DNA of 64,000 nt from Candidatus Cloacimonadota bacterium (GCA_018400535.1 JAGYMQ010000034.1:10137-74136); one strand, 5' to 3'; positions 5,509-49,583 are shown, counted from the first letter of the stretch. Numbers and translations: made by a program. The notes: generated by a model not told the origin, from the sequence alone.

Positions 5509-7474
<1,966 letters not shown>

Positions 7475-10543: not shown

Positions 10544-10555
10544 ATTTTCCTCCAT

Positions 10556-19426: not shown

Positions 19427-19436
19427 CTTTTTTCCT

Positions 19437-30021: not shown

Positions 30022-30070
30022 GAAAAAACAAGTAGAATAGATAAATCAAAATTTACTTATCTATTCTACT
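30022..30070 (-). terminator. Rho-independent terminator ending the metabolic supercluster
   Basis: A perfect 14-bp stem agtagaatagataa/ttatctattctact is followed on the minus strand by gttttttc. Confidence 0.8.
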
Positions 30071-30100
30071 TAAATTAGTTTTTCAATTTAATATTTTTTT

Positions 30101-30655
30101 CTATTTCTTAAATCTTTTCACACCTTCTTGATAAATATCATTGCCGTTGACGTCATTAGCCACGATGCAAGGAAAATCTTCTACTTCCAATTTACGGATC
30201 GCTTCTGTGCCCAGATCTTCATAAGCGATCACTTCTGCTTTCTTGATAGCACTTGCTACGACAACCGCAGCTCCACCGATCGCTGCCAGATAAACAGCTT
30301 GATTCTTTTTCATTGAATTGATGACTTCCTCGCTGCGTGGTCCTTTTCCGATCATTCCTTTTAGACCGACATCCATCAGAGCTGGAGCGTAAGGATCCAT
30401 GCGATAACTCGTGGTCGGTCCAGCAGAACCGATCGGTTTTCCGGGAGGAGCTGGAGCCGGTCCCACATAATAAATGACAGCGCCTGCGATATCAAAAGGC
30501 AATTCTTTATTCTGTTCTAACAAATCTACAAGTCTCTTGTGGGCTGCATCGCGCGCTGTGTAAATCGTTCCCGAAAGATATACTTTATCACCGATTTCCA
30601 ATTTTGCCAGATCTTCTACTTTTAACGGAGTTCTCAATTTTATCGTTTTTGCCAT
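30101..30655 (-). CDS. Class I Fe-S hydro-lyase beta subunit (fumarate hydratase FumB/TtdB type)
   Basis: LSGTIYTARDAAHKRL and GKGPRS motifs. The ATG at 30655 is preceded by AGGAGGA, so the track start at 30712 is probably too long. Confidence 0.8.
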   Translation of the reverse strand: MAKTIKLRTPLKVEDLAKLEIGDKVYLSGTIYTARDAAHKRLVDLLEQNKELPFDIAGAVIYYVGPAPAPPGKPIGSAGPTTSYRMDPYAPALMDVGLKGMIGKGPRSEEVINSMKKNQAVYLAAIGGAAVVVASAIKKAEVIAYEDLGTEAIRKLEVEDFPCIVANDVNGNDIYQEGVKRFKK

Positions 30656-30668
30656 TTTGTTCCTCCTT

Positions 30669-31514
30669 TCAAATCGTTGCTGTTTTGTGTCTGTCTGCAT
30701 GACATTGTACATTCACGGCGACAGGCATTGAAGCGATGTGACAAGGTTTGTGCAGGATATGAACCGCCAGAGCTGTCGTTCTGCCGCCCAAACCTTGTGG
30801 TCCGATTCCTAAATCATTGACTTTTTTCAAAATTTCTGCTTCCACTTCTGCCCATTTCGGGTCTGGATTTTCTTCGTTTAAAGAACGCAGTAGAGATTTT
30901 TTTGCCAGAAGTGCACTTTGCTCAAAATTTCCGCCCAAACCGACTCCAACAACGACAGGCGGGCAGGGATTTCCTCCAGACCGCTTGATGCGATCTACCA
31001 CGAAATCGATGACGCCTTCGATCCCGTCTGCTGCTTTCATCATTTTCACTTCGCTCATATTTTCGCTTCCGCCACCTTTGGGAGCAACGGTTATCTTCAA
31101 TTTTTCTCCGGGCACAATATCGGTATAGATCAAAGCTGGAGTATTATCTTTCGTGTTTTTTCTTTCAATGATCGGATCATCGACCATAGATTTGCGCAGA
31201 TAGCCATCTTGGTAGCCTTGTCGCACACCTTCATTGATCGCTTCCTCAAAATTTCCACCTGTGATATGAACATCCTGTCCTATTTCGATAAAAATAACAG
31301 CAACGCCAGTATCCTGGCAGATCGGCATTTTTTCCTGAGCAGAAAGTTCATAATTTTCCAATAAAATATCCAGAACTTCTTTTGCCGTTTCCGATTCTTC
31401 CTTTGCCTTAAATTCTTTGATCTTGTCGATCACATCATCGCCGATATAATAATTCGAATCAATACACAATTTTTTTACTATCGGGATGATCTCCTTCACG
31501 TCAATGGTTCGCAT
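30669..31514 (-). CDS. Class I Fe-S hydro-lyase alpha subunit (fumarate hydratase FumA/TtdA type)
   Basis: It has a CQDTG cluster-ligand motif. Its length and sequence fit the N-terminal domain of the two-subunit fumarase family. Confidence 0.8.
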   Translation of the reverse strand: MRTIDVKEIIPIVKKLCIDSNYYIGDDVIDKIKEFKAKEESETAKEVLDILLENYELSAQEKMPICQDTGVAVIFIEIGQDVHITGGNFEEAINEGVRQGYQDGYLRKSMVDDPIIERKNTKDNTPALIYTDIVPGEKLKITVAPKGGGSENMSEVKMMKAADGIEGVIDFVVDRIKRSGGNPCPPVVVGVGLGGNFEQSALLAKKSLLRSLNEENPDPKWAEVEAEILKKVNDLGIGPQGLGGRTTALAVHILHKPCHIASMPVAVNVQCHADRHKTATI

Positions 31515-31908
31515 TAGAACTCCTTATTTTAATTTTTTTTAGATGTAGTTCAATCAGGGTTTTTCCCAATTGCAACATAATATCATCAAATGATCTCAAT
31601 ATCTTATTTTCTGGGAAACGAATAAATTGATAATCAAAATGTTCAAGCAAGATCCTACGATTGATTTTGTATTCTGGCTGCAAGCTGTGAATTCCTTGAT
31701 CCAATTCAATGATGAGGTTGTGATCAGGACAATAGAAATCTACCAGGAGAAATCTTTTTTCTCCTTGATGATCAAACAAAATGGGATGACAACGCTGAAA
31801 TTTCTTGTTGAGAAAATTCCCGTCCTTCAAATGTTCCCAGATCAGATGATGACTATTTGCTTCATTTTGACAATACTTTTCAACGGTTGTTTTGATCTTT
31901 TTTTTCAT
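31501..31908 (-). CDS. DUF559 endonuclease-like domain protein
   Basis: [20 protein letters not shown]...FIRFPENKI matches the DUF559 (Vsr/restriction-endonuclease-like fold) pattern. It overlaps the sucD stop by 4 nt and the fumarase alpha start by 14 nt. Confidence 0.7.
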
Positions 31909-32780
31909 GGTCTTGCCATAATTTTTTTCACACTTTTTCCAATATCAGCAGGAGATTCTGTGACGGTTACGCCAGCTTTTTCGAGAGCTTTCATTTTTTC
32001 GCGAGCTGTGCCTTTGCTACCAGCAATGATCGCGCCTGCATGTCCCATTCGCTTGCCTTTGGGAGCAGTTTGCCCGGCGATGAAAGCAACAACAGGTTTG
32101 TGAAATTCTTCTTTGATGAATTTTGCAGCTTGGATCTCCATATCGCCACCAATTTCTCCGATCATCACTACTGCCTTTGTTTCATCATCTTCTGCAAAGA
32201 GTTTTAGTAGATCAACGAAAGAAGAGCCGATGATAGGATCTCCGCCGATCCCGATTGCTGTGGTGATGCCGAATCCAGCTTCCACTACTTGATTTGCTGC
32301 TTCATAGGTTAGAGTTCCTGATTTGGAGATCAAACCGATTTTCCCTTTTTTGAAAACAAAACCTGGCATAATTCCTACTTTGGCTTCTTCTGCAGAAATA
32401 ATTCCCGGACAATTTGGTCCGATCAATCTTACATTCTGCTCTTTACAAAATTTCTTTGCTAACATCATATCTGAAGTTGGAATGCCTTCTGTGATACAAA
32501 CGATAACTTCAATCTCTGATTCAGCAGCTTCCATCACAGCATCTGCGGCGAAAGAAGGTGGAACAAAGATCAGGCTCACATTTGCTGCTGTTTCCTTTTT
32601 GGCTTCTGCCACAGTATTGAAAACCGGTTTTCCGAGGTGAATCTTTCCGCCTTTTCCAGGGGTGACGCCGCCCACGATTTTTGTGCCAAAATCTAAACAT
32701 TGCTGAGCATGGAAACTGCCTTCTTTACCGGTGAAGCCTTGCACGATAACACGAGAATTTTTATTTACAAGGATGCTCAT
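31905..32780 (-). CDS. sucD: Succinate--CoA ligase (ADP-forming) alpha subunit
   Basis: [10 protein letters not shown] and the phosphohistidine loop MGHAGAII. Confidence 0.92.
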
Positions 32781-33952
32781 TTTTGTTCTCCCTTTGCTGC
32801 GATTACCGCTTTCTGTGCGCCATCAGCCAGATTGGAAGCATAGATAATGTTCTTGATTTTAGCGTTTTTCAGGATCTGGGCAGCTTTTTCGGAATTTGTA
32901 CCATCCAGACGAACAATTAAAGGAACAGCCACTTCAGTTTTTTGGGTCGCTTCCAAGATACCATTGGCGATGCGGTCACAGCGCACAATCCCGCCAAAGA
33001 TATTGATAAAGATCGCTTTTACATTCGGGTCTCGCAATATTATATCAAAGCCTTTAGCGACGGTTTCGGCGCTGGCATTTCCACCCACATCCAAAAAATT
33101 TGCTGGTTCACCTTGATAATATTTGATGATATCCATCGTGGACATGGCAAGACCTGCGCCATTAACCATACAGCCGACATTTCCATCCAGTTTGACATAG
33201 CTCAGATTAAATTTTTTTGCTTCGATCTCGCTGGGTTCTTCTTCGTCTAGATCGCGCAATTTTATTATTTCTGGATGACGAAACAGAGCGTTATCATCGA
33301 AATTTATCTTTGCATCCAAAGCGATAAAGTTGTTTTCCTGGGTGAGTACCAGTGGATTGATCTCGATCAAACTTGCGTCTGTTTCCAAATAGACTTTGTA
33401 TAATGTGCTGGCGAATTTAGAGAATTCTCGCTGCTGTTCTTTGGTAAGTTTCAGACCGAAAGCCAATTTTCTGGCGTGGAAATTTTGGAAACCGGTTAAA
33501 GGATCGATCGCAATTTTTATGATCTTCTCTGGATTTTTTTCAGCTACTTTTTCGATTTCCATACCGCCTTCTGTGGAAGTTATCATCACGGGTTTTTCCA
33601 GCGTCCGATCTAAAACGATTCCCAGATAAAATTCAGTTTGGATGGCGACTCCACCTTCGAGATAGACTTTTTTAACGATTTTACCTGCATCTCCAGTTTG
33701 GTGTGTGATGAGTCTCATTCCCAAAATTTCTGATACGAATTTTTTTACTTCTTCGATGTTTTTAGCAATTTTAACGCCGCCTGCTTTTCCGCGTCCACCA
33801 GCGTGTACCTGTGCTTTCACCGCCCAGATGTTTCCGCCGATTTCCTTGGCGGCAGCTTCGGCTTTTTCTTCTTGTGAGATTATTTTGCCAGGCGGAATTG
33901 GAACTCCGTATTGTGCAAAAATCTCTTTCGCTTGATACTCATGAACTTTCAT
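32777..33952 (-). CDS. sucC: Succinate--CoA ligase (ADP-forming) beta subunit
   Basis: The N-terminus [18 protein letters not shown] and an ATP-grasp region. It overlaps sucD by 4 nt. Confidence 0.92.
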
Positions 33953-33959
33953 AACACCT

Positions 33960-34412
33960 CTATTTCAGATTTTGTTGTTCAATAATTGTTTTGACTAAAT
34001 TGGGAATTTTTGCTTCGATTTTGGGAGTGCATCTTTCGGAAAATGTGAAAGTATCTTTTACTTCGATACCGTAAATCTCGATTTCTGCTGGTAATTTACA
34101 ATTTTCCTTTTTCATGATCTCGAAAGCTTCGAAAAGACTGATATCATGCGGAGAAGAATGATGCAATGTGTTCTGAAATTCCTGCCTGTCAAAATGATGT
34201 AGTGTGCCAAATTCTGCCTTTCCAGTTTTCACCGAATCGATCAAGATAAGCTTGTCATATCCGATAATTTCGTCAATCACGCGAAAACCAGCAGCGCTTG
34301 CTTCTTTCACGTCACATTGGAAACATTTCTGCTGGATATGATTTGCCACGTGAATTCCCACGCCGTCATCAGAAAGAATCGTATTACCCAAACCCAAAAC
34401 CAGCGTTCTCAT
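33960..34412 (-). CDS. [NiFe]-hydrogenase maturation endopeptidase
   Basis: LVLGLGNTILSDDGVG motif, 150 aa, directly downstream of the large-subunit gene. Confidence 0.8.
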   Translation of the reverse strand: MRTLVLGLGNTILSDDGVGIHVANHIQQKCFQCDVKEASAAGFRVIDEIIGYDKLILIDSVKTGKAEFGTLHHFDRQEFQNTLHHSSPHDISLFEAFEIMKKENCKLPAEIEIYGIEVKDTFTFSERCTPKIEAKIPNLVKTIIEQQNLK

Positions 34413-34419
34413 GAATGAA

Positions 34420-35883
34420 TTAATCTCGTTTCAAAGTCTGAATTTTATTTTTCTCATTATCATAGATATTCACGATCAAAGGAGTTTTGCCCGGAAGTGA
34501 ATGCGTAGCGCAAGCAAGACAAGGATCATAGGGACGGAAAGCCATCTCGACCATGTTTAATATCTCGTCAGTAACCTTTCCTTTTTTAATCAATTTTTGG
34601 GCAGCCTTGGCAATGGACATCGACATAGCGGCAGAATTTCCTACAGTTGCCACAATTAAATTTACGGCTGTGACCAAGCCTTTTTCATCAGTTTTATAAT
34701 GATGGATCAAAGTTCCGCGCGGAGCTTCTACAACTCCGACTCCTTCATCAGGAATCGAAGTGGGAATATTGCGGATATTGGGATTTGTGATCGATTTATC
34801 GGAGAGAAGTTGTTCCAATCTTTCTGCCAGATTCACGACTTCGATCAAACGAGCCCAATGAAAAGCTAATGTATTATGAGCTGGTTTTCCGCCCAAAATA
34901 TCATACATTTTTTCAAATTCTTGCTGTGCGATCGGTGTTCCCATCGCATCGGCGACGTTCAATCTTGCCAAAGGTGCGACGCGATAGACTCCACTTTCTT
35001 TTCCATCTTGAAATCCTTTCCAGCCAATATTTTTCAGATAGGGGAACTTCATATAACTCCAGGGTTCGACACGCTCTTTGATGTGATCAAGATAATTTTC
35101 TGATGAGAATTTGGCGATCTCTTTTCCTTCAGGATCGACGACACGAATTTTTCCATCATAAAGGTCAGGATAGTTATTTTCGTCAACCAAGCCCATATAA
35201 TAGGTTTTGTGTTTGTAAATATCACCGACAACGAGATCAACATATTTATCATTTTTCAAAACGATATCATCGAAAATTTGCATGGCGAATTTGGAAAACT
35301 CTACTGTTTTTTTGGCGATTTGAAGATATTCCTGTCTTTTCTCTTCGGTAATGCCTTTGGAGACTCCGCCGGGAAGACCACAAACAGGATGGATCACACG
35401 TCCACCAAGTTCAGTTATGATGCGTCTTAGATCGCGACGTGCTGCGATCACTTTCTTTCCGATCTCAGTTCCCACTTTTCCCACAACGCCCAGAATATTT
35501 CTTTCGGCAGGAGGTGCGTCGGGCCCGACCACGAAATCAGGACCTCCCAGGAAGAAGAAATGCAAAAGATGATCTTCCATTACAAAAGCGCTATTGATCA
35601 CCCTGCGGATCTTGACAGCAGTTTCGGTTGGTTTCACTTGATAGACGGCATCGACAGTTTTTGTGGAAGCCATGTGATGCGTTGTCGGACAAACACCGCA
35701 GATACGTGGAGTGATTCGTGGAAGTTCTTCGACGGGTCGGCCGATACAAAATTGTTCAAAGCCTTTTAATTCAGGAACTTGTAAATAAGCATTTTTGGCG
35801 TTGCCTTCATCATCCAGAAATATTTCTATTTTGCCGTGTCCTTCCAATCTCGTGATTGGATCAATTGTTACTTTTTTTGTCAT
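34420..35883 (-). CDS. mvhA: [NiFe]-hydrogenase large subunit, cytoplasmic Mvh type (group 3c-like)
   Basis: ITRLEGHG and RICGVCPTTH near the N-terminus and DPCLACATH near the C-terminus. A roughly 26-aa tail after the His would be removed by the protease. Confidence 0.88.
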   Translation of the reverse strand: MTKKVTIDPITRLEGHGKIEIFLDDEGNAKNAYLQVPELKGFEQFCIGRPVEELPRITPRICGVCPTTHHMASTKTVDAVYQVKPTETAVKIRRVINSAFVMEDHLLHFFFLGGPDFVVGPDAPPAERNILGVVGKVGTEIGKKVIAARRDLRRIITELGGRVIHPVCGLPGGVSKGITEEKRQEYLQIAKKTVEFSKFAMQIFDDIVLKNDKYVDLVVGDIYKHKTYYMGLVDENNYPDLYDGKIRVVDPEGKEIAKFSSENYLDHIKERVEPWSYMKFPYLKNIGWKGFQDGKESGVYRVAPLARLNVADAMGTPIAQQEFEKMYDILGGKPAHNTLAFHWARLIEVVNLAERLEQLLSDKSITNPNIRNIPTSIPDEGVGVVEAPRGTLIHHYKTDEKGLVTAVNLIVATVGNSAAMSMSIAKAAQKLIKKGKVTDEILNMVEMAFRPYDPCLACATHSLPGKTPLIVNIYDNEKNKIQTLKRD

Positions 35884-35894
35884 AAGAAATCCTC

Positions 35895-36899
35895 TTAAAT
35901 TTGTTTTTCGCTACGAGTTCTGTGCAACATTGAGACGGGCAAAGAAAAGCGATAGAATGTGCCAGCTGGATCAACGATTTGATCCATCAATTTTGTGATC
36001 TTTTCTTCATCATAATCTTCTTCATTTTCCACTCCCAAAATTGATGCAAGAGCTGAAACCATTTTTCCTCCGACATCTTTGACATTGTTCGGCGCTCCGT
36101 AGCAACCGCGACACGGCATATTCACCGTGATACATCTGCCATCACCCTCTTTTCGGCAACCAGCTCGTGTGACTGGCCCCATACAGATAATACCTTGCGC
36201 TAGAAAGCATTTTTCCGGGTCAGCATCGACGAGAGATATGCGATTGATCTCATCGAGCATTAGCTTTTCAGGTTTTGTGTCATTACGAGAGCAGACATCG
36301 CACAGTGATTTATCGGGAGCCAAAACAGATCCTTTTGCTGGAAGATCATTAGCCAATATTTTATGGATCGCTTCCAAAGTGAGATAGGGAGCTGGCGAAC
36401 AGCCAGGAATGTAATAATCTACAGTCACAACTTGATCCAAGCTTTTCACTGTATTATGAAAAGCAGGAAGCGTCAATTCTCCTTCAGGTACTTTCACTTT
36501 TGTTTCAGGGACAATATTTTCTGGGTTTTCGATAGAAGGGCAGGCAGCTTTGTAGGAAACATCAAAAATAGAATGTTTATCATAGAAATTTGCTAATCCT
36601 GGAATTCCGCCGAGATGGGAACAAGCTCCGAACGAAATGACCATTTTAGATTTTTTTCGCAAAAGTTTTGCCATTTCCAATTGTTCATCAGTTCTGATCG
36701 CACCATTGATAAAGCAGGCATCAATTTCCTGATCAGCCATTTTTCTAACATCAGCATATTTAAAATCCATAGCGCAGGGCCAAAATACAATATTTATCAG
36801 ATCAGCGACTTCCAATATTTTTTCGTTTAGATCGATGATCGCTTCTTCACAACCACCACAGGAAGCGCACCAATAAAAAGCAACTTTTGGTTTTGCCAT
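35895..36899 (-). CDS. mvhG: [NiFe]-hydrogenase small subunit, Mvh type
   Basis: FYWCASCGGCEE, GACSHLGGIPG and C-terminal Cys clusters (CMGPVTRAGC, PCRGCYG). It has no twin-arginine signal. The ATG at 36899 is preceded by GAGGAGG. Confidence 0.8.
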   Translation of the reverse strand: MAKPKVAFYWCASCGGCEEAIIDLNEKILEVADLINIVFWPCAMDFKYADVRKMADQEIDACFINGAIRTDEQLEMAKLLRKKSKMVISFGACSHLGGIPGLANFYDKHSIFDVSYKAACPSIENPENIVPETKVKVPEGELTLPAFHNTVKSLDQVVTVDYYIPGCSPAPYLTLEAIHKILANDLPAKGSVLAPDKSLCDVCSRNDTKPEKLMLDEINRISLVDADPEKCFLAQGIICMGPVTRAGCRKEGDGRCITVNMPCRGCYGAPNNVKDVGGKMVSALASILGVENEEDYDEEKITKLMDQIVDPAGTFYRFSLPVSMLHRTRSEKQI

Positions 36900-36975
36900 T
36901 AACCGAACCTCCTCTATATTAACAAGAAACTTTTTTTTCAAACTTTATTGTGATCAAATGCAAATGAACTCTCCG

Positions 36976-38646: not shown

Positions 38647-38658
38647 ATTTTCTCCTGT

Positions 38659-41757: not shown

Positions 41758-41767
41758 TTTAGCCTCT

Positions 41768-42649
41768 TTAGATCAATTGCTTATCTTTTAACAAAGGCAA
41801 CGGGTCAACTGCATGCAATTCACTCCACGAAGCTTCCCACGTGTGTCCTAATGCTAAAGCCAATAATTCTGTAAAGTAGAAAACAGGAATATTTACAAAT
41901 CCGACATATTCTTTTTCGATCTCTTTTTGCAGGAAATCAAGATTATAAGCACAAAGTGGGCAACTCGTGACGATCGCATCGCAGTTTGCTTTTTTGGCTG
42001 AATTTAAAATTTCATAACATCGTTTGACGCTGACGTCCTTTTGAGTCAAAGTTTGATAAGCACCACAGCATTCTAACTTGTATGGATAATCGATCGCTTC
42101 AGCACCCAAAATTCTGAGGAAGTCTTCAATGATAGTTGGTTCTTCAAAATCATCGATAGCAAATTCTTTTGGACGTACCAGCAGACAACCATAATATGCG
42201 CCTAACCTTAAAGATTTTAAGGGATTGTGCACCAGCTTTTCTATCGTCTCATATTTGATCCTATCCTTAAGAATATTAAAAAGATGATAGACTTGGATAT
42301 CTTGATCATATTCAATATTTTCTCGATACATAAAATCGGTAACTTTTTTTAGATTATCGGGATCAGAATCGATGAAAGCTTTGGATCGGTTCAAAGTGTT
42401 ATAGCACATACTGCAGAGTGTAACCAATTCATCAAAACCTTGTTCTTTGGCACGTAATAGATTTCGAATGGAAGCAAGATGCAGCATCAGATCATCATCT
42501 GTTTGAGAAAAGACAGTGCCACAACAGACCCAATCCTTCATTTCAACCAGTTGATGTCCCAGAATTTCCATTGCTTTGATAGCAGAATCTTCAAAATGGC
42601 TGGCATTTGCTTTCAGAGTGCAACCTGGATAATAGGGTAAATTCATCAT
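41768..42649 (-). CDS. hdrB: Heterodisulfide reductase subunit B-like protein (two CCG domains)
   Basis: YYPGCTL at the N-terminus plus the motifs WVCCGT and LECCGA. Confidence 0.8.
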   Translation of the reverse strand: MMNLPYYPGCTLKANASHFEDSAIKAMEILGHQLVEMKDWVCCGTVFSQTDDDLMLHLASIRNLLRAKEQGFDELVTLCSMCYNTLNRSKAFIDSDPDNLKKVTDFMYRENIEYDQDIQVYHLFNILKDRIKYETIEKLVHNPLKSLRLGAYYGCLLVRPKEFAIDDFEEPTIIEDFLRILGAEAIDYPYKLECCGAYQTLTQKDVSVKRCYEILNSAKKANCDAIVTSCPLCAYNLDFLQKEIEKEYVGFVNIPVFYFTELLALALGHTWEASWSELHAVDPLPLLKDKQLI

Positions 42650-42688
42650 ATTCCTCTTTTTTGCTTTGATCTCATTATTCTCATTTTT

Positions 42689-43096
42689 TCAACCTGTCAT
42701 TTTACGCATCGCACTAACCAACAAGATAGGAGGTGTTTCTTTTATGTTCTGGATCTGTGTTTTATTTGGTTCAACTTTACTAAATCTTTTTCGCAAATTG
42801 ATCGCACGAAAAGCTTCCATAACCTTGGAGACATCAATTCCTTTTGGGCAACGCGAAGAGCATTGCAAACAAGTAGAACAGATCCAAATAGTTTCGCTAT
42901 CCAGAATTTCTTGAATCGCACCAAATTGTGCTAATCGCATAACCTGATTTGGAGAAATGTCCATATAGTCAACGACTGGGCAACCAGATGAGCAATTTCC
43001 GCATTGATAACAATCGAACACATTTTGAGCAGATATTTCTTGAACTTGTTCTGACAGAGAATTTTTGATCGCTTTATTGTTCAATTTGTAGAACAT
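42689..43096 (-). CDS. hdrC: Heterodisulfide reductase subunit C-like 2x[4Fe-4S] protein
   Basis: CYQCGNCSSGCP and CSTCLQCSSRCP with the HdrC-type spacing (...PNQVMRL...). Confidence 0.75.
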   Translation of the reverse strand: MFYKLNNKAIKNSLSEQVQEISAQNVFDCYQCGNCSSGCPVVDYMDISPNQVMRLAQFGAIQEILDSETIWICSTCLQCSSRCPKGIDVSKVMEAFRAINLRKRFSKVEPNKTQIQNIKETPPILLVSAMRKMTG

Positions 43097-43098
43097 AA

Positions 43099-43635
43099 CT
43101 ATTCTCCTTTGTAATTGTAACCATAATCAAAAGCTTTGATATTCAAATCTTTAAATTTTGCTGGAACTGAGCCGATGATCGCTTGTTTCATTGCTTCTGG
43201 TGATGCGATCTTTGCTTGTGCGGTAGCGAATCCCAACATCACAATGTTTGCCACGATCTTTTTTCCCAGTTCTTCTGCGATCCTGGTAGCAGGAATTTTT
43301 TTTGCTTTGAAATTTTTATGAGATTGTAGATTTGTCACAAGATCGCTATCGTAAAGCAAAATTCCATCTTCAAGCAAGATATGCAAAAATTTGTCATATC
43401 CTTCCTGGGACATTGCGATTAAAATCTCTGTTTCATCTACTAACGGATAATCTACTTCTTGTGGGGAAATAACTACTTGAGAACTGCAGGCACCACCGCG
43501 AGCTTCTGGCCCATAAGCTTGTGTCATCGAAGCATTTTTCCCATCGAAAATGGAAGCTGCTTTTCCTACAATGTATGAGGAAAGGATTATGCCCTGTCCG
43601 CCAAATCCAGATATTTTCACTCTCAATTCTTTCAT
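43099..43635 (-). CDS. 2-oxoacid:ferredoxin oxidoreductase gamma subunit (set 1, KorG/OorC-like)
   Basis: ISGFGGQGIILS motif. The ATG at 43635 is preceded by AAGGAGA. Confidence 0.85.
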   Translation of the reverse strand: MKELRVKISGFGGQGIILSSYIVGKAASIFDGKNASMTQAYGPEARGGACSSQVVISPQEVDYPLVDETEILIAMSQEGYDKFLHILLEDGILLYDSDLVTNLQSHKNFKAKKIPATRIAEELGKKIVANIVMLGFATAQAKIASPEAMKQAIIGSVPAKFKDLNIKAFDYGYNYKGE

Positions 43636-43648
43636 GCATTCTCCTTTT

Positions 43649-44524
43649 TCAAACAACGCTCTCACGATTTTTGATAACTTTATAATTTTTGGTTTTCACG
43701 ACTCTTTTTTCAATTCCCTTTTGCACATTTTCCCAAAAGGTCGGCCTGTCTTCATTAATGAAAACACCGCAAATGATCTCACCGTTCATTCCAAGAGGAA
43801 TTTTTTGTGGATCAGCTTCATGATCGATTATTGATCGATCTTTGTATTCTCGCAGAATATCGAGCCCGGTTCCACCTTTGTTTTTGCGTGCAAAAACTGT
43901 CGAGCAGGGAGAAACCACTTCTAAAAAGCAAAATCCCTTTTTCTTTGCCATTTCTTTGATCGTATCGGTCAAACGGTGAAAATGAAGCGCTGTCCATCTT
44001 GCCACATAAGATGCTCCAGCAGCAGCAGCAACGCCCACTAAATTGAAGGGTTGTTCATAATTTCCATAAGGTGCTGTGGAGCTGTATGCGCCTAAAGGTG
44101 TGGTGGGAGCATTTTGTCCGCCTGTCATTCCATAAATGAAATTATTTACGCAGATCACATTCATATCGACATTGCGACGAGCGGCATGAATGAGATGATT
44201 ACCACCGATTGCAAAAAGATCACCGTCACCGGAAATGACAGCGACCGTTAGATCACGATTTGCCAATTTCAAACCAGAAGCAAAAGGAATGGCTCTGCCG
44301 TGCGTTGTGTGATAGGAATCCAATTTAATGTAGCCTGCCACTCTGCCTGTGCAACCAATACCAGAGACGACAGCAACTTTGTTTGTGTCAATTCCAGCAT
44401 TTTTGATTCCTTTCATGAAAGAGTTCACAATCGTTCCCAGACCACAAGAAGAACACCAAATATGCGGCATTCTATCCATTCTCAGATATTTTTCCATCGG
44501 ATGATGAGCTGCGTTATTTTGCAT
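43649..44524 (-). CDS. 2-oxoacid:ferredoxin oxidoreductase beta subunit (set 1, TPP-binding)
   Basis: WCSSCG plus the TPP motif GDGD...NN (ISGDGDLFAIGGNH...CVNNFIYGMTGGQ). The ATG at 44524 is preceded by GAGGAGG. Confidence 0.88.
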   Translation of the reverse strand: MQNNAAHHPMEKYLRMDRMPHIWCSSCGLGTIVNSFMKGIKNAGIDTNKVAVVSGIGCTGRVAGYIKLDSYHTTHGRAIPFASGLKLANRDLTVAVISGDGDLFAIGGNHLIHAARRNVDMNVICVNNFIYGMTGGQNAPTTPLGAYSSTAPYGNYEQPFNLVGVAAAAGASYVARWTALHFHRLTDTIKEMAKKKGFCFLEVVSPCSTVFARKNKGGTGLDILREYKDRSIIDHEADPQKIPLGMNGEIICGVFINEDRPTFWENVQKGIEKRVVKTKNYKVIKNRESVV

Positions 44525-45668
44525 GTGCCACCTCCTCGATTGCTTTAATAATTTCACTTTGACTGTGCATACCGCCGCCAGGATGGGGAAGCCATTTTGT
44601 GGTGCAATATTTAGCGCAACGATCCACTTCCAGAGCGACCTGTCCCATATTTAATTCTGCCACTACAAAGCCTGCTACTTTTTTGGATAGTTCCAAGATC
44701 AATTTTTCTGGAAAGGGCCATACCGTTATCAAGCGTAGATATCCAATTTTTATGCCTTTTTTCTTTGCTTTTTCGATCGCCGGAATGACCGTTCTGGATG
44801 TGATGCCATAGGAAATCACGATTACATCTGCATCATCGATATCCCGTTTTTCCAATAGAATTATCTCTTCAGAATTATCGCGTATTTTATTGATCAATCG
44901 ATTCACCAGCTTGATATGAGTTTCCACAGACATATCCGGATAACCTTTTTCGTTGTGGGTGAGACCTGTAGAATGATAAAGATGACCATCGCCAGCTTTA
45001 GCAAAATCTGGAACAAATTCATCATCACAACATTCATAAGGCTTGTATTGATCACCTTTTTTATTAGTGTATTTCCTTTCGATCAATTCCAATTCTTCGG
45101 AAGGTGGGATCACGACTTTTTCTGTCATGTGTCCCACAACGGCATCTGCCATAATGAAAACTGGAAGTCGATATTTTTCTGAAAAATTAAATGCTTTGAT
45201 CGTTAGGTCAAAATATTCTTGCGGAGATTTTGGACAAAGTGCTATCGATCCATAATCTCCGTGTGAGCCCCATCTTGCTTGCATCATGTCGGATTGACCC
45301 CAGGAAGTGGGCAGTCCAGTCGAAGGAGATCCTCTTTGGACATTAACGACCACGCAGGGAGTTTCCATCATCATGCCCAATCCGATATTTTCCAGCATCA
45401 AGGAAATACCTGGTCCGGAAGTCGCTGTCATTGATTTCACGCCAGCCCAAGATGCACCCAATATTGAAGCCATCGAAGCGATCTCGTCTTCAAATTGCAC
45501 AAATACTCCGTCCAATTGTGGAAGTCGATAGGACATTCTTTCAGCTATTTCAGAAGCAGGCGTGATGGGATATGCGCCAAAAAACCTGCATCCAGCTGAG
45601 ATCGCTGCTTCAGCGCAAGCATAATTACCCTGTAAAAAAAATTCACCGTGCATATCACTGATTCTCAT
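44514..45668 (-). CDS. 2-oxoacid:ferredoxin oxidoreductase alpha subunit (set 1)
   Basis: GAYPITPASEIAE and ATSGPGISLM motifs. ATGA overlap with the delta gene. Confidence 0.88.
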   Translation of the reverse strand: MRISDMHGEFFLQGNYACAEAAISAGCRFFGAYPITPASEIAERMSYRLPQLDGVFVQFEDEIASMASILGASWAGVKSMTATSGPGISLMLENIGLGMMMETPCVVVNVQRGSPSTGLPTSWGQSDMMQARWGSHGDYGSIALCPKSPQEYFDLTIKAFNFSEKYRLPVFIMADAVVGHMTEKVVIPPSEELELIERKYTNKKGDQYKPYECCDDEFVPDFAKAGDGHLYHSTGLTHNEKGYPDMSVETHIKLVNRLINKIRDNSEEIILLEKRDIDDADVIVISYGITSRTVIPAIEKAKKKGIKIGYLRLITVWPFPEKLILELSKKVAGFVVAELNMGQVALEVDRCAKYCTTKWLPHPGGGMHSQSEIIKAIEEVAHAK

Positions 45669-45925
45669 TTCACCTCCTCACGAATAACAAAAATTGCCGA
45701 ATCGGGGCAAATGGATTCACACAGACCGCAGTAGGTACACTTTTTTGTAAAAATGATCTCGGGTGGATGATAGCCTTTTTTGTTAAATTCATTTGAAAAA
45801 TCTAAGACATTATTTGGACAGAATTCAATACAGAAACCACAGCCTTTGCAGCGATCTTTGAAGATATTAATCGAGCCTTGAAAGACTTGAGGCTTTTCTC
45901 TACCAAAGGGTTTTTCCCAATATTT
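45665..45925 (-). CDS. 2-oxoacid:ferredoxin oxidoreductase delta subunit (set 1, 2x[4Fe-4S] ferredoxin-like)
   Basis: CKGCGFCIEFCP and CTYCGLCESICP. I prefer the ATG at 45925 (GGGAG RBS). The track start at 45958 would place a terminator 6 nt upstream of the gene. Confidence 0.75.
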   Translation of the reverse strand, partial: KYWEKPFGREKPQVFQGSINIFKDRCKGCGFCIEFCPNNVLDFSNEFNKKGYHPPEIIFTKKCTYCGLCESICPDSAIFVIREEVK

Positions 45926-45963
45926 CATAGCAACTCCCGTCATCTCAAATTTTAACATTTACC

Positions 45964-45997
45964 AAATAAAAAAAGCAGTCCACTAAACAGACTGCTT
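45964..45997 (-). terminator. Intrinsic terminator at the 3' end of the 280-nt mce-to-OFOR spacer
   Basis: On the minus strand, aagcagtc-tgtttagtg-gactgctt is followed by tttttttattt. Confidence 0.7.
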
Positions 45998-46272
45998 CAC
46001 TGAAATTTTGCATTTTTCTATGCAAAAGAAAGGTTTGCTCCTGAAAGGAGAAAAACCTTAATCTTATATTTCTAATCAGCTTTATTGACTGATCTAATAT
46101 CAAAATAATCCCCTTTTGTGAGAACTAATATTTCTTGAAAACTCCTCACAATATGGCGGATTAAATTGTGAATTGAGAATTAATTGTCAATTAGAAAATC
46201 CAAAATTCAACATTTTTTTTTATATTGCATAACATTTATAGCTGACAACAAACTATAATATAACGAAATACA

Positions 46273-46677
46273 TTAATTATCATTTTCTTCGCACAATTCA
46301 ACTAAAACTCCATGCGTAAATTTTGGATGAAGAAATCCAATATTTGCACCGTGTGCTCCTAAACGTGGAAGTTTATCGATCAAGCGAATTCCCTTTTCTT
46401 CGATTTCTTTTAATCTATCACGGATATTATCTGTGCTGAACGCAATATGATGGATACCTTCGCCCTTTTTCGCGATGAACTTGGCGATCGTACTATGCTC
46501 TGAGGTAGCTTCCAGAAGCTCGATGCGAACTTCTCCGACAGGCAGAAAAGCAACTTTCACTTTTTGAGATTCAACGATTTCAGTTGCTTCCAATTCCAAT
46601 CCCAATTTCTGATAAAATTTCATAGCTTCATCGATGCTATGCACAGCTATTCCAATGTGACTGATCTTATTAACCAC
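46273..46677 (-). CDS. mce: Methylmalonyl-CoA epimerase (VOC family)
   Basis: ISHIGIAV...IELLE...GEGIHHIAF...PRLGAHGANIGFLHPK...GVLVELCE matches the MCE pattern. I prefer the GTG at 46677 (AGGAGA RBS, 8-nt overlap with the upstream stop). The alternative ATG is at 46713. Confidence 0.8.
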   Translation of the reverse strand: MVNKISHIGIAVHSIDEAMKFYQKLGLELEATEIVESQKVKVAFLPVGEVRIELLEATSEHSTIAKFIAKKGEGIHHIAFSTDNIRDRLKEIEEKGIRLIDKLPRLGAHGANIGFLHPKFTHGVLVELCEENDN

Positions 46678-47239
46678 TATTTTCTCCTGAATATTTGGCT
46701 GGATCATTAGCAAGCCGGAATCCGATCTTTAATGCTTTTGTATTCAGATCGACATACTGCTTTTTTACATAATCTTGGACAGCTTTTTTCAGGGAAACTT
46801 GGGTGACGACTTTGGTTAATTTGACCATAAATCCGAGAGACATAATATTTGTGGGAAGAGCAGTTCCCAGCTCTTTTTTGGCAATATTGGTAAAGGGGAT
46901 TTCATAGATATTTGCTTCTTGCACGATGATATCTTTGACAAAGGTCGTATCTGCTATGAGAATGCTATTTTCTTCCAGGTTGGGAGAATATTTATCACAG
47001 GCTTCTTGAGTGAGAGCTAAAAGCACATCAAATTTTGTGGCTTCTGGATAATAAAACTTTTCTTTGCTGATGATCACGTCTGCGCGCGATGCTCCACCTC
47101 TTGATTCAGGACCGTAGCTTTGTGATTGTGTGACGCGATAACCATCAATAACGGCGGCTTTTGCCAGAATAATTCCAGCAGTGATCAAACCTTGGCCACC
47201 GCTTCCACTTAAACGAATTTCCTTCATATTATTGTTCAT
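46670..47239 (-). CDS. 2-oxoacid:ferredoxin oxidoreductase gamma subunit (set 2)
   Basis: LSGSGGQGLITAG motif. It is a paralog of 43099-43635. Confidence 0.85.
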   Translation of the reverse strand: MNNNMKEIRLSGSGGQGLITAGIILAKAAVIDGYRVTQSQSYGPESRGGASRADVIISKEKFYYPEATKFDVLLALTQEACDKYSPNLEENSILIADTTFVKDIIVQEANIYEIPFTNIAKKELGTALPTNIMSLGFMVKLTKVVTQVSLKKAVQDYVKKQYVDLNTKALKIGFRLANDPAKYSGENSG

Positions 47240-48078
47240 TTTTTTTGTTCCTTTGCAATAGATTGGATCAATTTCTCGTATTCATCTGTATATTCAGGTT
47301 TTTCTATTTCACGGAAAATTCCTCTTTGGACCTTTCCTTTTTTCTGTTCTTCAGTCAATTTATCAAAAGCTTTGATCGGGATCACATTGTCTTTCATTTC
47401 TCTCATCATATCAGGAGCTGTGCCTTTCTTATTCAAGCGTCCATAGATAACTGGACAGGCGCTGATGATCTCAACGATAGAAAATCCTTTGTGAGATAGA
47501 GCTTTACGAATGAAATTCTGAGCTTCGACAGAATGAAAAGCTGTGGAGCGCGCCACAAAAGTAGCTCCTGCGCCCAAAGCCAGTTCGCAAATGTCAAAAA
47601 CAGGATCAATATTCCCATAGGGCGTTGTAGTCGCTTTGTCGCCAGTTGGAGTGGTCGGTGAATATTGTCCACCTGTCATTCCATAAATATGATTATTGAT
47701 AAGAATTACGGAGAGATTAATATTTCTGCGTGCTGCATGAATAAAATGATTTCCGCCGATCGCTGTAGCATCTCCATCGCCGGTGACGACCATCACATCC
47801 ATTTTCGGATTCTGCATTTTGATACCGGTGGCAAAGGCGATCGCTCTTCCGTGAAGCGTGTGCAAGGTGTTAAAATCAACATAAACGGGCATTCTGCTGG
47901 AGCATCCGATTCCAGAAACCATTGCTGTGTTACTACGTTTCCAGCCTAATTGATTTACCGCACGAATGATATTTCCCAGCACAATTCCATTGCTACAACC
48001 AGGACACCAAACGTGTGGAAATTTTTTCCGATGTCTGAGATAATGGTTATGAACGATTTTTTGTGGAACTTTTTGCAT
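47236..48078 (-). CDS. 2-oxoacid:ferredoxin oxidoreductase beta subunit (set 2, TPP-binding)
   Basis: WCPGCS and VTGDGDATAIGGNH...LINNHIYGMTGGQ. Confidence 0.88.
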   Translation of the reverse strand: MQKVPQKIVHNHYLRHRKKFPHVWCPGCSNGIVLGNIIRAVNQLGWKRSNTAMVSGIGCSSRMPVYVDFNTLHTLHGRAIAFATGIKMQNPKMDVMVVTGDGDATAIGGNHFIHAARRNINLSVILINNHIYGMTGGQYSPTTPTGDKATTTPYGNIDPVFDICELALGAGATFVARSTAFHSVEAQNFIRKALSHKGFSIVEIISACPVIYGRLNKKGTAPDMMREMKDNVIPIKAFDKLTEEQKKGKVQRGIFREIEKPEYTDEYEKLIQSIAKEQKK

Positions 48079-48079
48079 C

Positions 48080-49252
48080 TTACTTCACCTCCTTCATAGT
48101 AGATATGATCTCTTGGGGAGTGATCAATTCTCCATTGTTCTTTTGAATAGGAACGATGTTACGTGTTTTTCGACTTTCATAATTCCAAACACTTCCCATC
48201 GCTCGTTTCACCTCGTTAAGAAGTTGTCCTTGATTTAATTCTGGAACAAAAACTGTTCTCACGTTATGAAAATATTTGCGTAATGCGTCATCAGGAAAGG
48301 GCCAAATTGTGAGTGGACGGATCAAGCCGACTTTTTTACCGGATTTCCGTGCTTTGACAACGGCTGATTTTGCTGCTCTTGCTGTTATCCCAGCGGCAAA
48401 GATAGCTGAACGGGCATCCTCCATCATAAATGTTTCAAACTGGATCAATTCCCGCAGATGGTGAGTGATCTTTTTTTTCAGACGATCCATCATCACAGCA
48501 GCTTCATCAGAGCGATTGGTCGGGAAACCATAGGCATCATGGGCAAGACCTGTAACATGAAAGCGATAGCCTTCTCCATAACTCGCCATGGGTGAAATGT
48601 ATTTGGGATTTTCTTCGTAATGTTTATACCATTCAGGAGGTATTGTGGGATGAATTCGATGTATCAATTTCACGTTTTTCAGATCTGGAAGCATTACTGA
48701 TTCCCTCATATGCGCAAGCACTTCATCCGTGAGAAGCACGACGCAAGTACGGTATTTTTCTGCCAGATTGAATGCGCGGATCGTCAATTGATAGCTTTCC
48801 AGAACTGATTCGGGGTAAAGAACGATCGCCGGCGAATCACCGTGACTTCCCCAGCGGGTTTGCATAATATCGCCTTGTGATGGTTTGGTTGGAAGTCCGG
48901 TGCTGGGACCACCACGCATCACGTTGACAACAACGCAGGGAGTTTCAGTCATTTTGGCGAAGCCGATTCCTTCTTGCATCAATGAAAAACCGGGGCCGCT
49001 GGTGGCGGTCATAGCTTTTGCTCCAGCAAGAGAAGCACCGATAATAGCTGCGATACTAGCGATCTCGTCTTCCATCTGGATGAATCTGTTTCCCTTTTTG
49101 GGAAGTTCTTCGGAAAGTATCTCCGCGATCTCAGTCGAAGGTGTGATCGGATAACCTGCGAAAAAGTCAAGTCCGGCAGCTAACGCACCTTTTGCGATAG
49201 CTTCATTTCCTTGCATTAAAACAACAGGGTTTTTCTTTGAATATTTTGCCAT
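48080..49252 (-). CDS. 2-oxoacid:ferredoxin oxidoreductase alpha subunit (set 2)
   Basis: GYPITPSTEIAE and ATSGPGFSLM. The ATG at 49252 is preceded by AAGGAGA, so the track start at 49363 is an upstream extension that overlaps the delta gene. Confidence 0.88.
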   Translation of the reverse strand: MAKYSKKNPVVLMQGNEAIAKGALAAGLDFFAGYPITPSTEIAEILSEELPKKGNRFIQMEDEIASIAAIIGASLAGAKAMTATSGPGFSLMQEGIGFAKMTETPCVVVNVMRGGPSTGLPTKPSQGDIMQTRWGSHGDSPAIVLYPESVLESYQLTIRAFNLAEKYRTCVVLLTDEVLAHMRESVMLPDLKNVKLIHRIHPTIPPEWYKHYEENPKYISPMASYGEGYRFHVTGLAHDAYGFPTNRSDEAAVMMDRLKKKITHHLRELIQFETFMMEDARSAIFAAGITARAAKSAVVKARKSGKKVGLIRPLTIWPFPDDALRKYFHNVRTVFVPELNQGQLLNEVKRAMGSVWNYESRKTRNIVPIQKNNGELITPQEIISTMKEVK

Positions 49253-49262
49253 TTTTTCTCCT

Positions 49263-49583
49263 TCACTTTTCTTTTGCGCCGGTGATGGCGAAATTTGGAC
49301 ACAGGCGATCGCAGGTTTCACAATGAATACAGTTGTCAGGATTTTTGACATAAGGTGAACCATCGGGTTTTGCGGCTAAAACATTTGTGGGACAGAAAGC
49401 GATGCAAATTCCACATTTGACACACCAGTCATGGTAGATATAGACAGGAGATTTTTTATAATCTCCTTCAGTTTTGATGTCAGTATCCTCGACTTCCATT
49501 TTCGCGGTAGCATCATCAGATTTGATGACGATACCTTCAGGATTTTTCTCCACGTTTTTGGGCTCTTTCTCTTCTGGTCTCAT
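49263..49583 (-). CDS. 2-oxoacid:ferredoxin oxidoreductase delta subunit (set 2) with an acidic N-terminal extension
   Basis: CVKCGICIAFCP and CIHCETCDRLCP, preceded by roughly 50 charged residues. Confidence 0.75.
   Translation of the reverse strand: MRPEEKEPKNVEKNPEGIVIKSDDATAKMEVEDTDIKTEGDYKKSPVYIYHDWCVKCGICIAFCPTNVLAAKPDGSPYVKNPDNCIHCETCDRLCPNFAITGAKEK

Follow-up and report, generated by a model that had tools for sequence, protein, structure and literature searches.

What could a bacterium gain from encoding a hydrogenase, a heterodisulfide-reductase-like module and a fumarate-reductase-type enzyme in the midst of genes for C4 and C5 carbon metabolism? The question is raised by a gene cluster at positions 30101–49583 of a 64-kb stretch of DNA (hereafter, the window) from a Candidatus Cloacimonadota bacterium (GCA_018400535.1 JAGYMQ010000034.1:10137-74136). 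The cluster encodes the MvhAGD-type [NiFe] hydrogenase, HdrABC, a fumarate-reductase-type pair (FrdAB), two 2-oxoacid:ferredoxin oxidoreductases (OFORs), succinyl-CoA synthetase (SucCD), fumarase and methylmalonyl-CoA epimerase (mce). Our tentative answer is that MvhAGD, HdrABC and FrdAB may form a soluble electron-bifurcating complex, which would drive with H2 a reductive C4-to-C5 branch feeding 2-oxoglutarate. The gene content was determined from a listing of open reading frames (ORFs) and from Pfam and NCBIfam profile scans of the window proteins. All 23 of the 23 genes described in a first-pass annotation of the same DNA were recovered at the same coordinates and in the same order, all on the minus strand and with intact cofactor motifs (Table 1).

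All six MvhAGD-HdrABC subunits are encoded together, between 43096 and 34420. The nearest solved relative of MvhA is the MvhA of the methanogen Mvh-Hdr complex, to which it aligns end to end. Its Ni-Fe ligand motifs are RICGVC at residues 60–65 (RxCGxC) and DPCLACATH at residues 453–461 (DPCxxCxxH), and they are followed by a 26-aa C-terminal tail of the kind cut by a maturation protease, whose gene lies downstream in the same cluster. MvhG carries no twin-arginine signal (no RR motif in the N-terminal sequence). Residues 3–648 of HdrA align to residues 13–654 of 8rvu_a with 703 bits, and 5odc_A is matched with 699 bits. The non-cubane cluster sites of HdrB were sought as two CX31-39CCX35-36CXXC motifs, and both were counted as present: Cys 10/42/43/79/82 form C10-x31-CC-x35-CxxC, and Cys 155/194/195/230/233 form C155-x38-CC-x34-CxxC, in which x34 stands in place of the expected x35–36 before CxxC. 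Both ferredoxin motifs of HdrC are intact. The scores for all NCBIfam equivalogs of Hdr and Mvh, including the CoB-CoM-specific ones, fell under their cut-offs. Thus, the window shares with the methanogen MvhAGD-HdrABC complex (5ODC, 8RVU) the six subunits, the NiFe, CCG and Fe-S motifs and a maturation protease, but the acceptor of the methanogen complex is the heterodisulfide of coenzyme M (CoM) and coenzyme B (CoB), CoM-S-S-CoB, whereas the window has FrdAB inside the operon. The frdBA genes sit between mvhD and mvhG, with overlaps or gaps of no more than 34 nt.

FrdA possesses the FAD_binding_2 fold and the catalytic His/Arg set of complex II: H327, R347, H440, and R474 align with H232, R287, H355, and R390 of E. 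coli FrdA. It differs from complex II in that Asn134 replaces the covalent-FAD His (His44 of E. coli FrdA) and in that no Pfam match to Succ_DH_flav_C (PF02910) was found. FrdB (237 aa) contains a single plant-type [2Fe-2S] motif and a pair of complete four-Cys [4Fe-4S] motifs, with neither a [3Fe-4S] motif nor a CCG domain. FrdB had been labelled "SdhB-like" before, but its matches to SdhB and TfrB models are weak. The other obvious comparison is the thiol:fumarate reductase TfrAB of Methanothermobacter, reportedly described by Heim and co-workers in 1998. TfrAB is likewise soluble and has no anchor, and the absence of the covalent-FAD His in FrdA is a further likeness. The two systems differ in that TfrB is a single polypeptide with Fe-S and two CCG domains, whereas FrdB has no CCG domain and FrdA carries an extra 95-aa N-terminal domain. 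The scores are correspondingly low. FrdA reached 326.5 bits with the TfrA model NF004900 (cut-off 718), the match ending at model position 426 of 546 and about 35 C-terminal residues of FrdA being left unmatched; FrdB reached 33 bits with the TfrB model NF004898 (cut-off 385). FrdB, HdrC, and HdrB each match a different part of the TfrB model, with HdrC and HdrB covering positions 118–233 and 264–480; the window therefore encodes separately the domains that Tfr fuses. Since no convincing membrane segment was found in any cluster protein, nor any anchor family or Tat signal, FrdAB is predicted to be soluble, and by these features it is neither complex II nor the archaeal TfrAB. We also considered L-aspartate oxidase as the identity of FrdA and rejected it: NadB models scored lower than those for TfrA and Sdh, and FrdA always comes with an Fe-S partner and with fumarase and SucCD genes nearby.

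Residues 1–95 of FrdA make up a family-specific domain that is Cys-free and largely helical, has no Pfam match, and opens with a conserved MYPEYM. It was matched in 294 cluster representatives, and in almost all of the 150 listed it lies at or near the N-terminus; the exception among these 150 is a 1584-residue protein with 13 matched stretches. An AlphaFold2 model of FrdA, built on a 13-sequence alignment, had a mean pLDDT (predicted local distance difference test) of 49 and did not resolve this domain. We regard the domain as a candidate docking domain for Hdr.

The association of FrdAB with Hdr extends well beyond the window. Scanning one genome per species returned 80 loci (numbered with the prefix L), onto which the window proteins were mapped. 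One FrdA homologue is 98% identical and the rest are at most ~82% identical; the closest named relatives (~76–82%) come from metagenome-assembled genomes (MAGs) labelled Cloacimonadota or Cloacimonetes, and at 56–75% the family reaches contigs of Neomarinimicrobiota, Delongbacteria, Aminicenantes, Omnitrophota, WOR-3, Thermodesulfobacteriota/Deltaproteobacteria, and Nitrospirae. In all 72 loci with room for it, frdB directly precedes frdA. In the 30 loci that extend 6 kb or more to either side, Hdr/MvhD genes accompany the pair in 25, a hydrogenase in 6, and Flx-type genes in 5, and the carbon enzymes are represented by sucCD (18 loci), fumarase (17), malic enzyme (15), and OFOR (10). The window-type layout, OFOR1-hdrCBA-mvhD-frdBA-mvhGA-protease-sucCD-fumAB, recurs in L012, L053, and L088, all of them Cloacimonadota. 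In L088 these genes are additionally preceded by OFOR2-mce and a spacer and followed by genes for a GIY-YIG protein and malic enzyme. Four further loci (L013, L043, L044, and L049) have partial versions of this layout, and rearranged ones are found in Marinimicrobia and Omnitrophota; in Marinimicrobia, frdBA adjoins the same module in another order. Conservation in related genomes, which the first-pass annotation had raised as a question, is thus evident from the same order in three genomes and from parts of it in at least six phyla. The nesting of frdBA within the mvh/hdr genes is kept in Cloacimonadota, Omnitrophota, and other MAGs. That the redox module is embedded among the carbon enzymes had also been remarked upon earlier; because this embedding is conserved across genomes and phyla, we argue that it reflects a functional link.

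The electron donor, on the other hand, varies. In the deltaproteobacterial layout, fumAB-hdrCBA-mvhD is followed by a protein without Pfam match, a Fer4_22 protein, an NAD_binding_1/DHODB_Fe-S protein (Flx-like), and frdBA-sucCD-OFOR; this Flx type occurs in the deltaproteobacterial loci L069–L080. In the hydrogenase-free locus L081, an HdrA::MvhD fusion, HdrC, HdrB, and FrdBA lie between OFOR2 and sucCD-fumAB-malic enzyme. The donor is accordingly swapped around a constant Hdr and FrdAB: Mvh in Cloacimonadota, Marinimicrobia, and Omnitrophota, Flx-like proteins in the deltaproteobacterial loci, and the HdrA-MvhD fusion alone in others. Such an exchange of donors around a constant Hdr-FrdAB core would be expected if an Hdr-type bifurcation has fumarate reduction as its exergonic half. 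The survey also revealed genes for malic enzyme (Pfam malic and Malic_M) immediately after the cluster or after frdA at 27 related loci (e.g. L081 15148–16599, L012 18235–19683, and L088 19088–20542); malic enzyme, rather than malate dehydrogenase, is the usual neighbour. The window lacks malic enzyme at that position, where a terminator and the genes for an HDIG-domain protein and two members of the aconitase family are found instead. As a separate observation, a second, canonical fumarate reductase set directly follows Flx-Hdr-FrdAB-sucCD-OFOR at 17199–20731 of L069, and also in L070, L074, L077, and L078; in L069 it consists of a flavoprotein with a C-terminal domain, a Fer2_3 Fe-S subunit, and a CCG protein, and it is only 34% identical.

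The carbon enzymes bear out the earlier statement that the cluster spans the interconversions from malate through fumarate, succinate, and succinyl-CoA to a 2-oxoacid. Fumerase and Fumerase_C domains lie on neighbouring genes, as in a two-subunit class I fumarase. Both OFOR sets have the order delta-alpha-beta-gamma and belong to the KorA/KorB branch (NF006412, Table 1), with PorA/VorA models scoring no more than 113 bits. The two sets are 46% identical in the alpha and 42% identical in the beta subunits, and the solved 2-oxoglutarate:ferredoxin oxidoreductases (OGORs) 8ys5 and 6n2n match both about equally; no OGOR specificity residues were found in the accessible literature. The first-pass annotation had assumed that one OFOR is a KOR; on profile scores and solved structures, neither set could be assigned to 2-oxoglutarate. 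Set 1 appears to be the better candidate for 2-oxoglutarate synthase, because its type accompanies the Mvh-Hdr-Frd module in Cloacimonadota and Omnitrophota. A four-subunit korABCD is likewise embedded in the hdr genes of Endoriftia (PMC11636981). The start of OFOR2 alpha is probably mis-called, since its first 101 nt lie within the delta gene; the true start probably lies about 40 codons downstream, and the homologue in L081 has 387 aa. The mce gene occupies the same position, after the OFOR2 gamma gene, in L002, L006, L007, L045, and L088.

We propose that these components would operate as follows. MvhA would oxidise H2, and electron pairs would pass via MvhG and MvhD to the flavin of HdrA to be bifurcated there. 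The high-potential electron would move through HdrC and HdrB to the clusters of FrdB and the flavin of FrdA, where fumarate would be reduced to succinate, and the low-potential electron would reduce ferredoxin. Two H2 would thus be consumed per fumarate and ferredoxin reduced, and fumarate would take the role that the CoM-S-S-CoB heterodisulfide has in methanogens. SucCD would activate the succinate, and fumarase would make fumarate from malate (relatives also have malic enzyme); the four-subunit OFOR would then carboxylate succinyl-CoA to 2-oxoglutarate with one reduced ferredoxin per fumarate. Because one reduced ferredoxin would be made per fumarate and one used per succinyl-CoA, Frd, SucCD, and OFOR together would be self-contained for ferredoxin. 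The net reaction would be fumarate + 2 H2 + ATP + CO2 -> 2-oxoglutarate, with ferredoxin cycling internally, and the branch would serve either a full reductive tricarboxylic acid (rTCA) cycle or 2-oxoglutarate supply. OFOR2-mce, as a separate upstream unit, would tie the succinyl-CoA pool to the methylmalonyl-CoA/propionyl-CoA route. Computed with textbook potentials, the forward reaction is strongly exergonic: it would yield −79 kJ/mol in the standard state, which is more favourable than the −46 kJ/mol with heterodisulfide as the acceptor, and −34 kJ/mol would be left at 10 Pa H2.

If such a complex exists, fumarate would be added to the few high-potential acceptors of flavin-based bifurcation, such as heterodisulfide and crotonyl-CoA. 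The proposal would also explain how strict anaerobes without a quinone-linked fumarate reductase obtain low-potential ferredoxin for 2-oxoglutarate synthase, one ferredoxin per C4 unit being made exactly at the site of use. FrdAB, with its own N-terminal domain, is the constant partner of Hdr in at least six phyla, and the donor module is swapped around the pair. The module is a good candidate for a new class of bifurcating acceptor.

Related clusters have been described. In Ca. Celaenobacter, of the same phylum, a cluster with the same gene families ("TFR", OGOR, fumarase, succinyl-CoA synthetase, group 3c Mvh, and Hdr) was inferred to be functionally linked and was read as an H2-driven rTCA cycle, with ATP-citrate lyase (ACL) elsewhere in the genome (Williams 2021, PMC8542988). 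The reductive-TCA alternative put forward in the first-pass annotation agrees with this published reading. That description is a gene inventory. The second OFOR and mce go unmentioned in it (the word "methylmalonyl" is absent from the text), as do the spacer, the terminator, and the position of frdBA inside mvh. Ca. Endoriftia persephone and Thioflavicoccus mobilis possess an rTCA cluster with flxABCD-hdrABC, korABCD, and tfrAB, whose genes are co-expressed as an operon and which was read as NADH-driven (Rubin-Blum 2019, PMC6315080; Mitchell 2024, PMC11636981). There, too, a soluble two-subunit fumarate reductase and a four-subunit OGOR lie among HdrABC and an MvhD-like connector, and the proposed bifurcation feeds both. 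The donor differs, however, being the NADH dehydrogenase FlxABC and not a [NiFe] hydrogenase, and that cluster includes ACL, aconitase, isocitrate dehydrogenase, malate dehydrogenase, PntAB, and Rnf, which are absent from the window cluster. In Pseudoclostridium thermosuccinogenes, a "succinate operon" of fumarate hydratase, Flx-Hdr, and fumarate reductase was proposed to be bifurcating and ferredoxin-reducing (Koendjbiharie 2020, PMC7282089, and a 2019 preprint cited therein); the likeness is one of description. This cultured relative of Clostridium is a fermentative succinate producer with NADH as the donor and no OFOR, SucCD, or hydrogenase in the operon. A 2026 survey repeats the idea of a bifurcating fumarate reductase. 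The locus had been presented as unusually complete; since the arrangement is already published at the genome level, it is not new as a genomic finding, and complexes of this kind are still hypothetical. What the present analysis adds is the module swapping across phyla, the N-terminal domain of FrdA, the logic of a split Tfr, the second OFOR with mce, the internal terminator, and the malic-enzyme neighbour.

Several observations weigh against our proposal. We found no published biochemical assay of any member of this complex type. Both OFORs score under the 2-oxoglutarate-specific cut-offs (sets 1 and 2, respectively: NF007206, 384 and 400 bits against 579; NF007207, 256 and 326 against 364; OGOR_delta, 65 and 33 against 125). 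ACL, pyruvate synthase, isocitrate dehydrogenase, and malate dehydrogenase are all missing from the 64-kb window. The retention of both CCG sites in HdrB also counts against it, as does the general view of Cloacimonadota as fermenters or syntrophs (PMC12590816). Finally, four loci (L002, L007, L045, labelled Ca. Tenebribacter mawsonii, and L064) have a bare layout, uvrB-OFOR2-mce-frdBA-sucCD-fumAB, with no Hdr/Mvh nearby. Because such close relatives carry frdBA-sucCD-fumAB without Hdr/Mvh nearby, FrdAB can evidently obtain electrons otherwise. The remainder of the window was also considered as a possible location of ACL, isocitrate dehydrogenase, methylmalonyl-CoA mutase, or Rnf, and was rejected: encoded there are two proteins of the aconitase family, a SprA-like protein, enolase, and peptidases, besides housekeeping functions.

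The same complex might run in the same direction, with H2 or another reductant as the donor, to conserve energy and balance redox in a fermenter, and not to fix CO2, an explanation that we consider unlikely but deserving of serious attention. Fumarate derived from malate or aspartate would then be an electron sink, and the ferredoxin would go to an Rnf-type pump or to biosynthesis; carbon would leave as succinate or, via succinyl-CoA and methylmalonyl-CoA (mce), as propionate, with the OFORs oxidising 2-oxoacids derived from amino acids. The adjoining of mce and OFOR2 in six Cloacimonadota loci fits this explanation, as do the several peptidases in the window flanks, the description of the phylum as amino-acid fermenting, and the decarboxylating malic enzyme of 27 relatives. 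In the Omnitrophota locus L063, which has the Mvh-Hdr-Frd-OFOR module, a B12-binding-domain gene and an HMGL-like (carboxyltransferase-type) gene lie nearby (646–1398 and 18962–20743). These neighbours favour the same explanation and are a second hint that the module is connected with the methylmalonyl-CoA route. P. thermosuccinogenes, moreover, produces succinate in culture, and its fumarase, Flx-Hdr, and fumarate reductase genes are expressed as the succinate operon (PMC7282089). Against a fermentative role, genes for methylmalonyl-CoA mutase and a decarboxylase or carboxyltransferase are not in the window; among the family matches within the 64 kb we found none for the mutase, a carboxyltransferase, or malate dehydrogenase, in line with the earlier remark that these three lie outside it. 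An uptake-type bifurcating hydrogenase would also be odd for an organism that has to dispose of reductant, and ACL is reported in genomes with this cluster (Williams 2021, PMC8542988).

We think it improbable that two enzymes are joined by a diffusible thiol, a scheme modelled on Tfr with CoM-SH and CoB-SH in Methanothermobacter. Mvh-Hdr would reduce a disulfide (of a low-molecular-weight thiol or a DsrC/TusA-like protein) together with ferredoxin, and FrdAB would be a thiol:fumarate reductase. Because HdrB retains both CCG cluster sites, the motifs of disulfide-reducing clusters, a thiol/disulfide intermediate is conceivable. The flavoprotein has been named "thiol:fumarate reductase" by database annotators and in two papers (PMC6315080, PMC8542988), and of two possibilities put forward for Endoriftia, one is a DsrC-like carrier (PMC11636981). 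The domain architecture argues the other way: FrdB has no CCG domain, whereas TfrB has its own, and with a single HdrBC set, thiol oxidation and disulfide reduction would have to share one site. The TfrA and TfrB model scores are far under the cut-offs, the cluster contains no gene for a carrier protein, and bacteria, to our knowledge, do not make CoM or CoB.

Reversal of the complex seems to us slightly less probable still. In this confurcating mode, succinate (+33 mV) and reduced ferredoxin from 2-oxoacid oxidation would together yield 2 H2 in syntrophic propionate or glutamate degradation, along the route from 2-oxoglutarate or propionyl-CoA through succinyl-CoA, succinate, fumarate, and malate to pyruvate. 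The machine would thus be reversible, the ferredoxin from the neighbouring OFOR pulling the conversion of succinate to fumarate, which could not proceed otherwise, and both electron pairs leaving as H2. The stoichiometry is 1:1 in this direction too, with one reduced ferredoxin and one succinate per 2-oxoglutarate. The presence of mce, the decarboxylating malic enzyme after the cluster in 27 related loci, and the discussion of Cloacimonadota as syntrophic propionate oxidisers are all consistent with it. The syntrophic succinate-oxidation branch, which the first-pass annotation had offered as its other alternative, is nevertheless disfavoured, though not impossible, because H2 evolution needs an H2 pressure below ~0.01 Pa at standard potentials; on generous assumptions, with succinate in 1000-fold excess over fumarate and a ferredoxin potential of −500 mV, the limit rises to ~2.7 Pa. 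Hdr is known to have group 3c hydrogenases as partners in H2 oxidation, and the Cloacimonadota proposed to oxidise propionate belong to the clade A group; both points count against reversal. According to a 2025 survey (PMC12590816), Mvh-Hdr is a mark of clade B of the phylum, and clade A has an Hnd-type [FeFe] hydrogenase instead. Organisms with the Flx (NADH) variants have been interpreted as CO2-fixing or succinate-producing, and the published homologous clusters have all been read reductively (PMC8542988, PMC6315080, PMC11636981, PMC7282089). If confurcation did take place, syntrophic degraders of propionate and glutamate would overcome the barrier of succinate oxidation wholly in the cytoplasm and independently of a membrane, and a switch could be provided by the conserved leader and terminator that precede the OFOR1 unit.

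Mere adjacency, in which strand bias and genome compaction have placed independent operons side by side and the hydrogenase/Hdr module has another acceptor, would suit the minus-strand orientation of the whole 56 kb around the cluster, the terminator hairpin within the region, and the close relatives that lack the Hdr/Mvh part, but it is very improbable given the overlapping, conserved nesting of frdBA in mvh/hdr in Cloacimonadota, Omnitrophota, and other MAGs and the adjoining of Hdr and frdBA in 25 of the 30 loci, also with a different donor module.

The bifurcating complex that we favour would be expressed from a locus that probably comprises more than one transcription unit. The co-directionality of the genes had been noted before as a feature of the supercluster. 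It carries no weight, because the minus strand holds all credible genes between 7542 and 63972 (~56 kb), a stretch in which the GC skew stays negative; plus-strand genes occur only within 11–7474. The co-orientation reflects either strong strand bias of replication or a very long block of co-oriented genes. Nor does the 19.5-kb region look like a single unit. A terminator scan revealed a hairpin followed by a T-run at 45998–45972, inside the spacer between mce and OFOR1, about 40 nt ahead of the OFOR1 delta start and just upstream of its ribosome-binding site. This hairpin is kept in four genomes (the window, L012, L053, and L088), the stem differing by compensatory changes, and it parts OFOR2-mce from the genes running from OFOR1 to fumarase. 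From OFOR1 delta to fumB, 18 genes follow one another with overlaps or gaps of no more than 39 nt. A terminator had previously been noted after fumB, where a long, A+T-rich, terminator-like hairpin indeed lies (Table 1), and a 444-nt gap separates the 18-gene unit from the next gene. The simplest reading of these features is two transcription units, OFOR2-mce and the 18-gene unit; the 45998–45972 hairpin would be either the terminator of the former or an attenuator ahead of the latter.

The spacer itself, put at 280 nt in the first-pass annotation, is ~344 nt long when OFOR1 delta starts at ATG 45928, the likely start in view of the GGGAG upstream. Its folding beats that of shuffled sequence (z = −3.55). 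The counterparts compared were L012 2470–2766, L053 1–227, and L088 2440–2755. Conservation of the upstream blocks is confined to the window, L012, and the part of the spacer that the L053 contig still covers; the blocks include TTTCTAATTGACAAkTAATTCTCAATT, CCATATTGTGAGGA, AAGGGGA...TTGA, and TCAGTCAATrAArCTGATT, and the near-palindrome TAATTGACAATTA and TTGACA are among the blocks common to the window, L012, and L053. In Rfam searches of the whole window, and in a permissive run on the spacer, no family reached its gathering score. A pattern scan of metagenomes for the spacer blocks gave 6 matches, all of them unrelated chance ones in coding or foreign sequence, and a scan for sigma-70 promoters gave no more matches than in shuffled sequence. 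From its sequence, the spacer could combine a promoter/operator with an attenuator, or it could encode a small RNA.

Table 1. Features of the gene cluster in the window, in the order of transcription
Feature	Coordinates	Strand	Basis
OFOR set 2 delta, 2x[4Fe-4S] ferredoxin-like, 106 aa	49263..49583	-	Pfam Fer4 families; two CxxCxxCxxxC motifs; OorD match weak
OFOR set 2 alpha	48080..49363	-	POR_N + PFOR_II; NF006412 544 bits (cut-off 411); NF007206 400 bits (cut-off 579)
OFOR set 2 beta, thiamine pyrophosphate-binding	47236..48078	-	TPP_enzyme_C; top NCBIfam 2-oxoglutarate ferredoxin oxidoreductase beta, 326 bits (cut-off 364)
OFOR set 2 gamma	46670..47239	-	Pfam POR, 126 bits
mce, methylmalonyl-CoA epimerase, VOC fold	46273..46713	-	TIGR03081 155.3 bits (cut-off 114.95)
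Non-coding spacer, ~344 nt	45929..46272	-	Sequence, terminator scan, RNA folding
OFOR set 1 delta, 87 aa from ATG 45928	45665..45928	-	Fer4 families; top NCBIfam OGOR_delta, 65 bits (cut-off 125)
OFOR set 1 alpha	44514..45668	-	POR_N + PFOR_II; NF006412 547 bits (cut-off 411); NF007206 384 bits (cut-off 579)
OFOR set 1 beta	43649..44557	-	TPP_enzyme_C
OFOR set 1 gamma	43099..43665	-	Pfam POR
HdrC-like, 2x[4Fe-4S]	42689..43096	-	Fer4_17, Fer4_8; top NCBIfam CoB_CoM_SS_C; two CxxCxxCxxxCP motifs
HdrB-like, two CCG domains (sites for non-cubane [4Fe-4S] clusters)	41768..42649	-	Pfam CCG x2
HdrA, bifurcating-type FAD/Fe-S subunit	39772..41757	-	NCBIfam HdrA2 model 826 bits; methanogen HdrA alignment
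MvhD, [2Fe-2S] connector	39341..39775	-	Pfam FlpD 177 bits; VhuD model 123 bits
FrdB, Fe-S partner of flavoprotein	38659..39372	-	Fer2 + Fer4 families; Cys motifs; frdA neighbour
FrdA, soluble fumarate-reductase-type flavoprotein	36976..38646	-	FAD_binding_2 245 bits
MvhG, [NiFe]-hydrogenase small subunit	35895..36941	-	Oxidored_q6; top NCBIfam VhuG
MvhA, group 3c-type [NiFe]-hydrogenase large subunit	34420..35883	-	5odc_F 418 bits; Ni-Fe ligand motifs
Hydrogenase maturation endopeptidase	33960..34412	-	Pfam HycI; TIGR00072 102 bits (cut-off 47)
SucC, succinyl-CoA synthetase beta	32777..33952	-	ATP-grasp_2 264 bits + Ligase_CoA
SucD, succinyl-CoA synthetase alpha	31905..32780	-	CoA_binding + Ligase_CoA
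DUF559 protein, endonuclease-related fold	31501..31908	-	PF04480 56.6 bits
Class I fumarate hydratase alpha	30669..31514	-	Pfam Fumerase 396 bits
Class I fumarate hydratase beta	30101..30712	-	Pfam Fumerase_C 222 bits
Terminator-like hairpin ending the 18-gene unit	30029..30072	-	18-bp stem with 3 G-C pairs, then T-run

The DUF559 gene, which lies between sucD and fumA and overlaps both, is a lineage-specific insertion outside the pathway; among the mapped loci, it was found only in the window and in L001. Small nuclease-fold genes in or beside the cluster occur in single genomes only, namely those of the window and L001 and the GIY-YIG gene of L088 (18630–18926), which is placed between fumB and malic enzyme. 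They resemble selfish elements whose insertion into the operon has been tolerated.

Downstream of the cluster, a 181-aa HDIG-domain protein (29111–29656) precedes the aconitase-family pair. The latter are two tandem paralogues of the aconitase/isopropylmalate-isomerase family with fused large and small subunits, encoded on the minus strand at 27174–28982 and 24999–26774 (602 and 591 aa). They passed only the generic family models and missed the aconitate hydratase cut-off, and they are not conserved beside the cluster in relatives. Further away, a 629-aa protein of the GlmL/MutL family is encoded on the minus strand at 8666–10555, with scores under all NCBIfam cut-offs. Members of this family are accessory proteins of B12-dependent mutases. 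The gene is flanked by two others without a family match (7542–8669 and 10556–10918), one of which has a faint RnfC-like stretch. A 2020-aa ORF on the minus strand at 11441–17503 contains an SprA_N domain (type IX secretion/gliding), which fits a genome of the FCB group.

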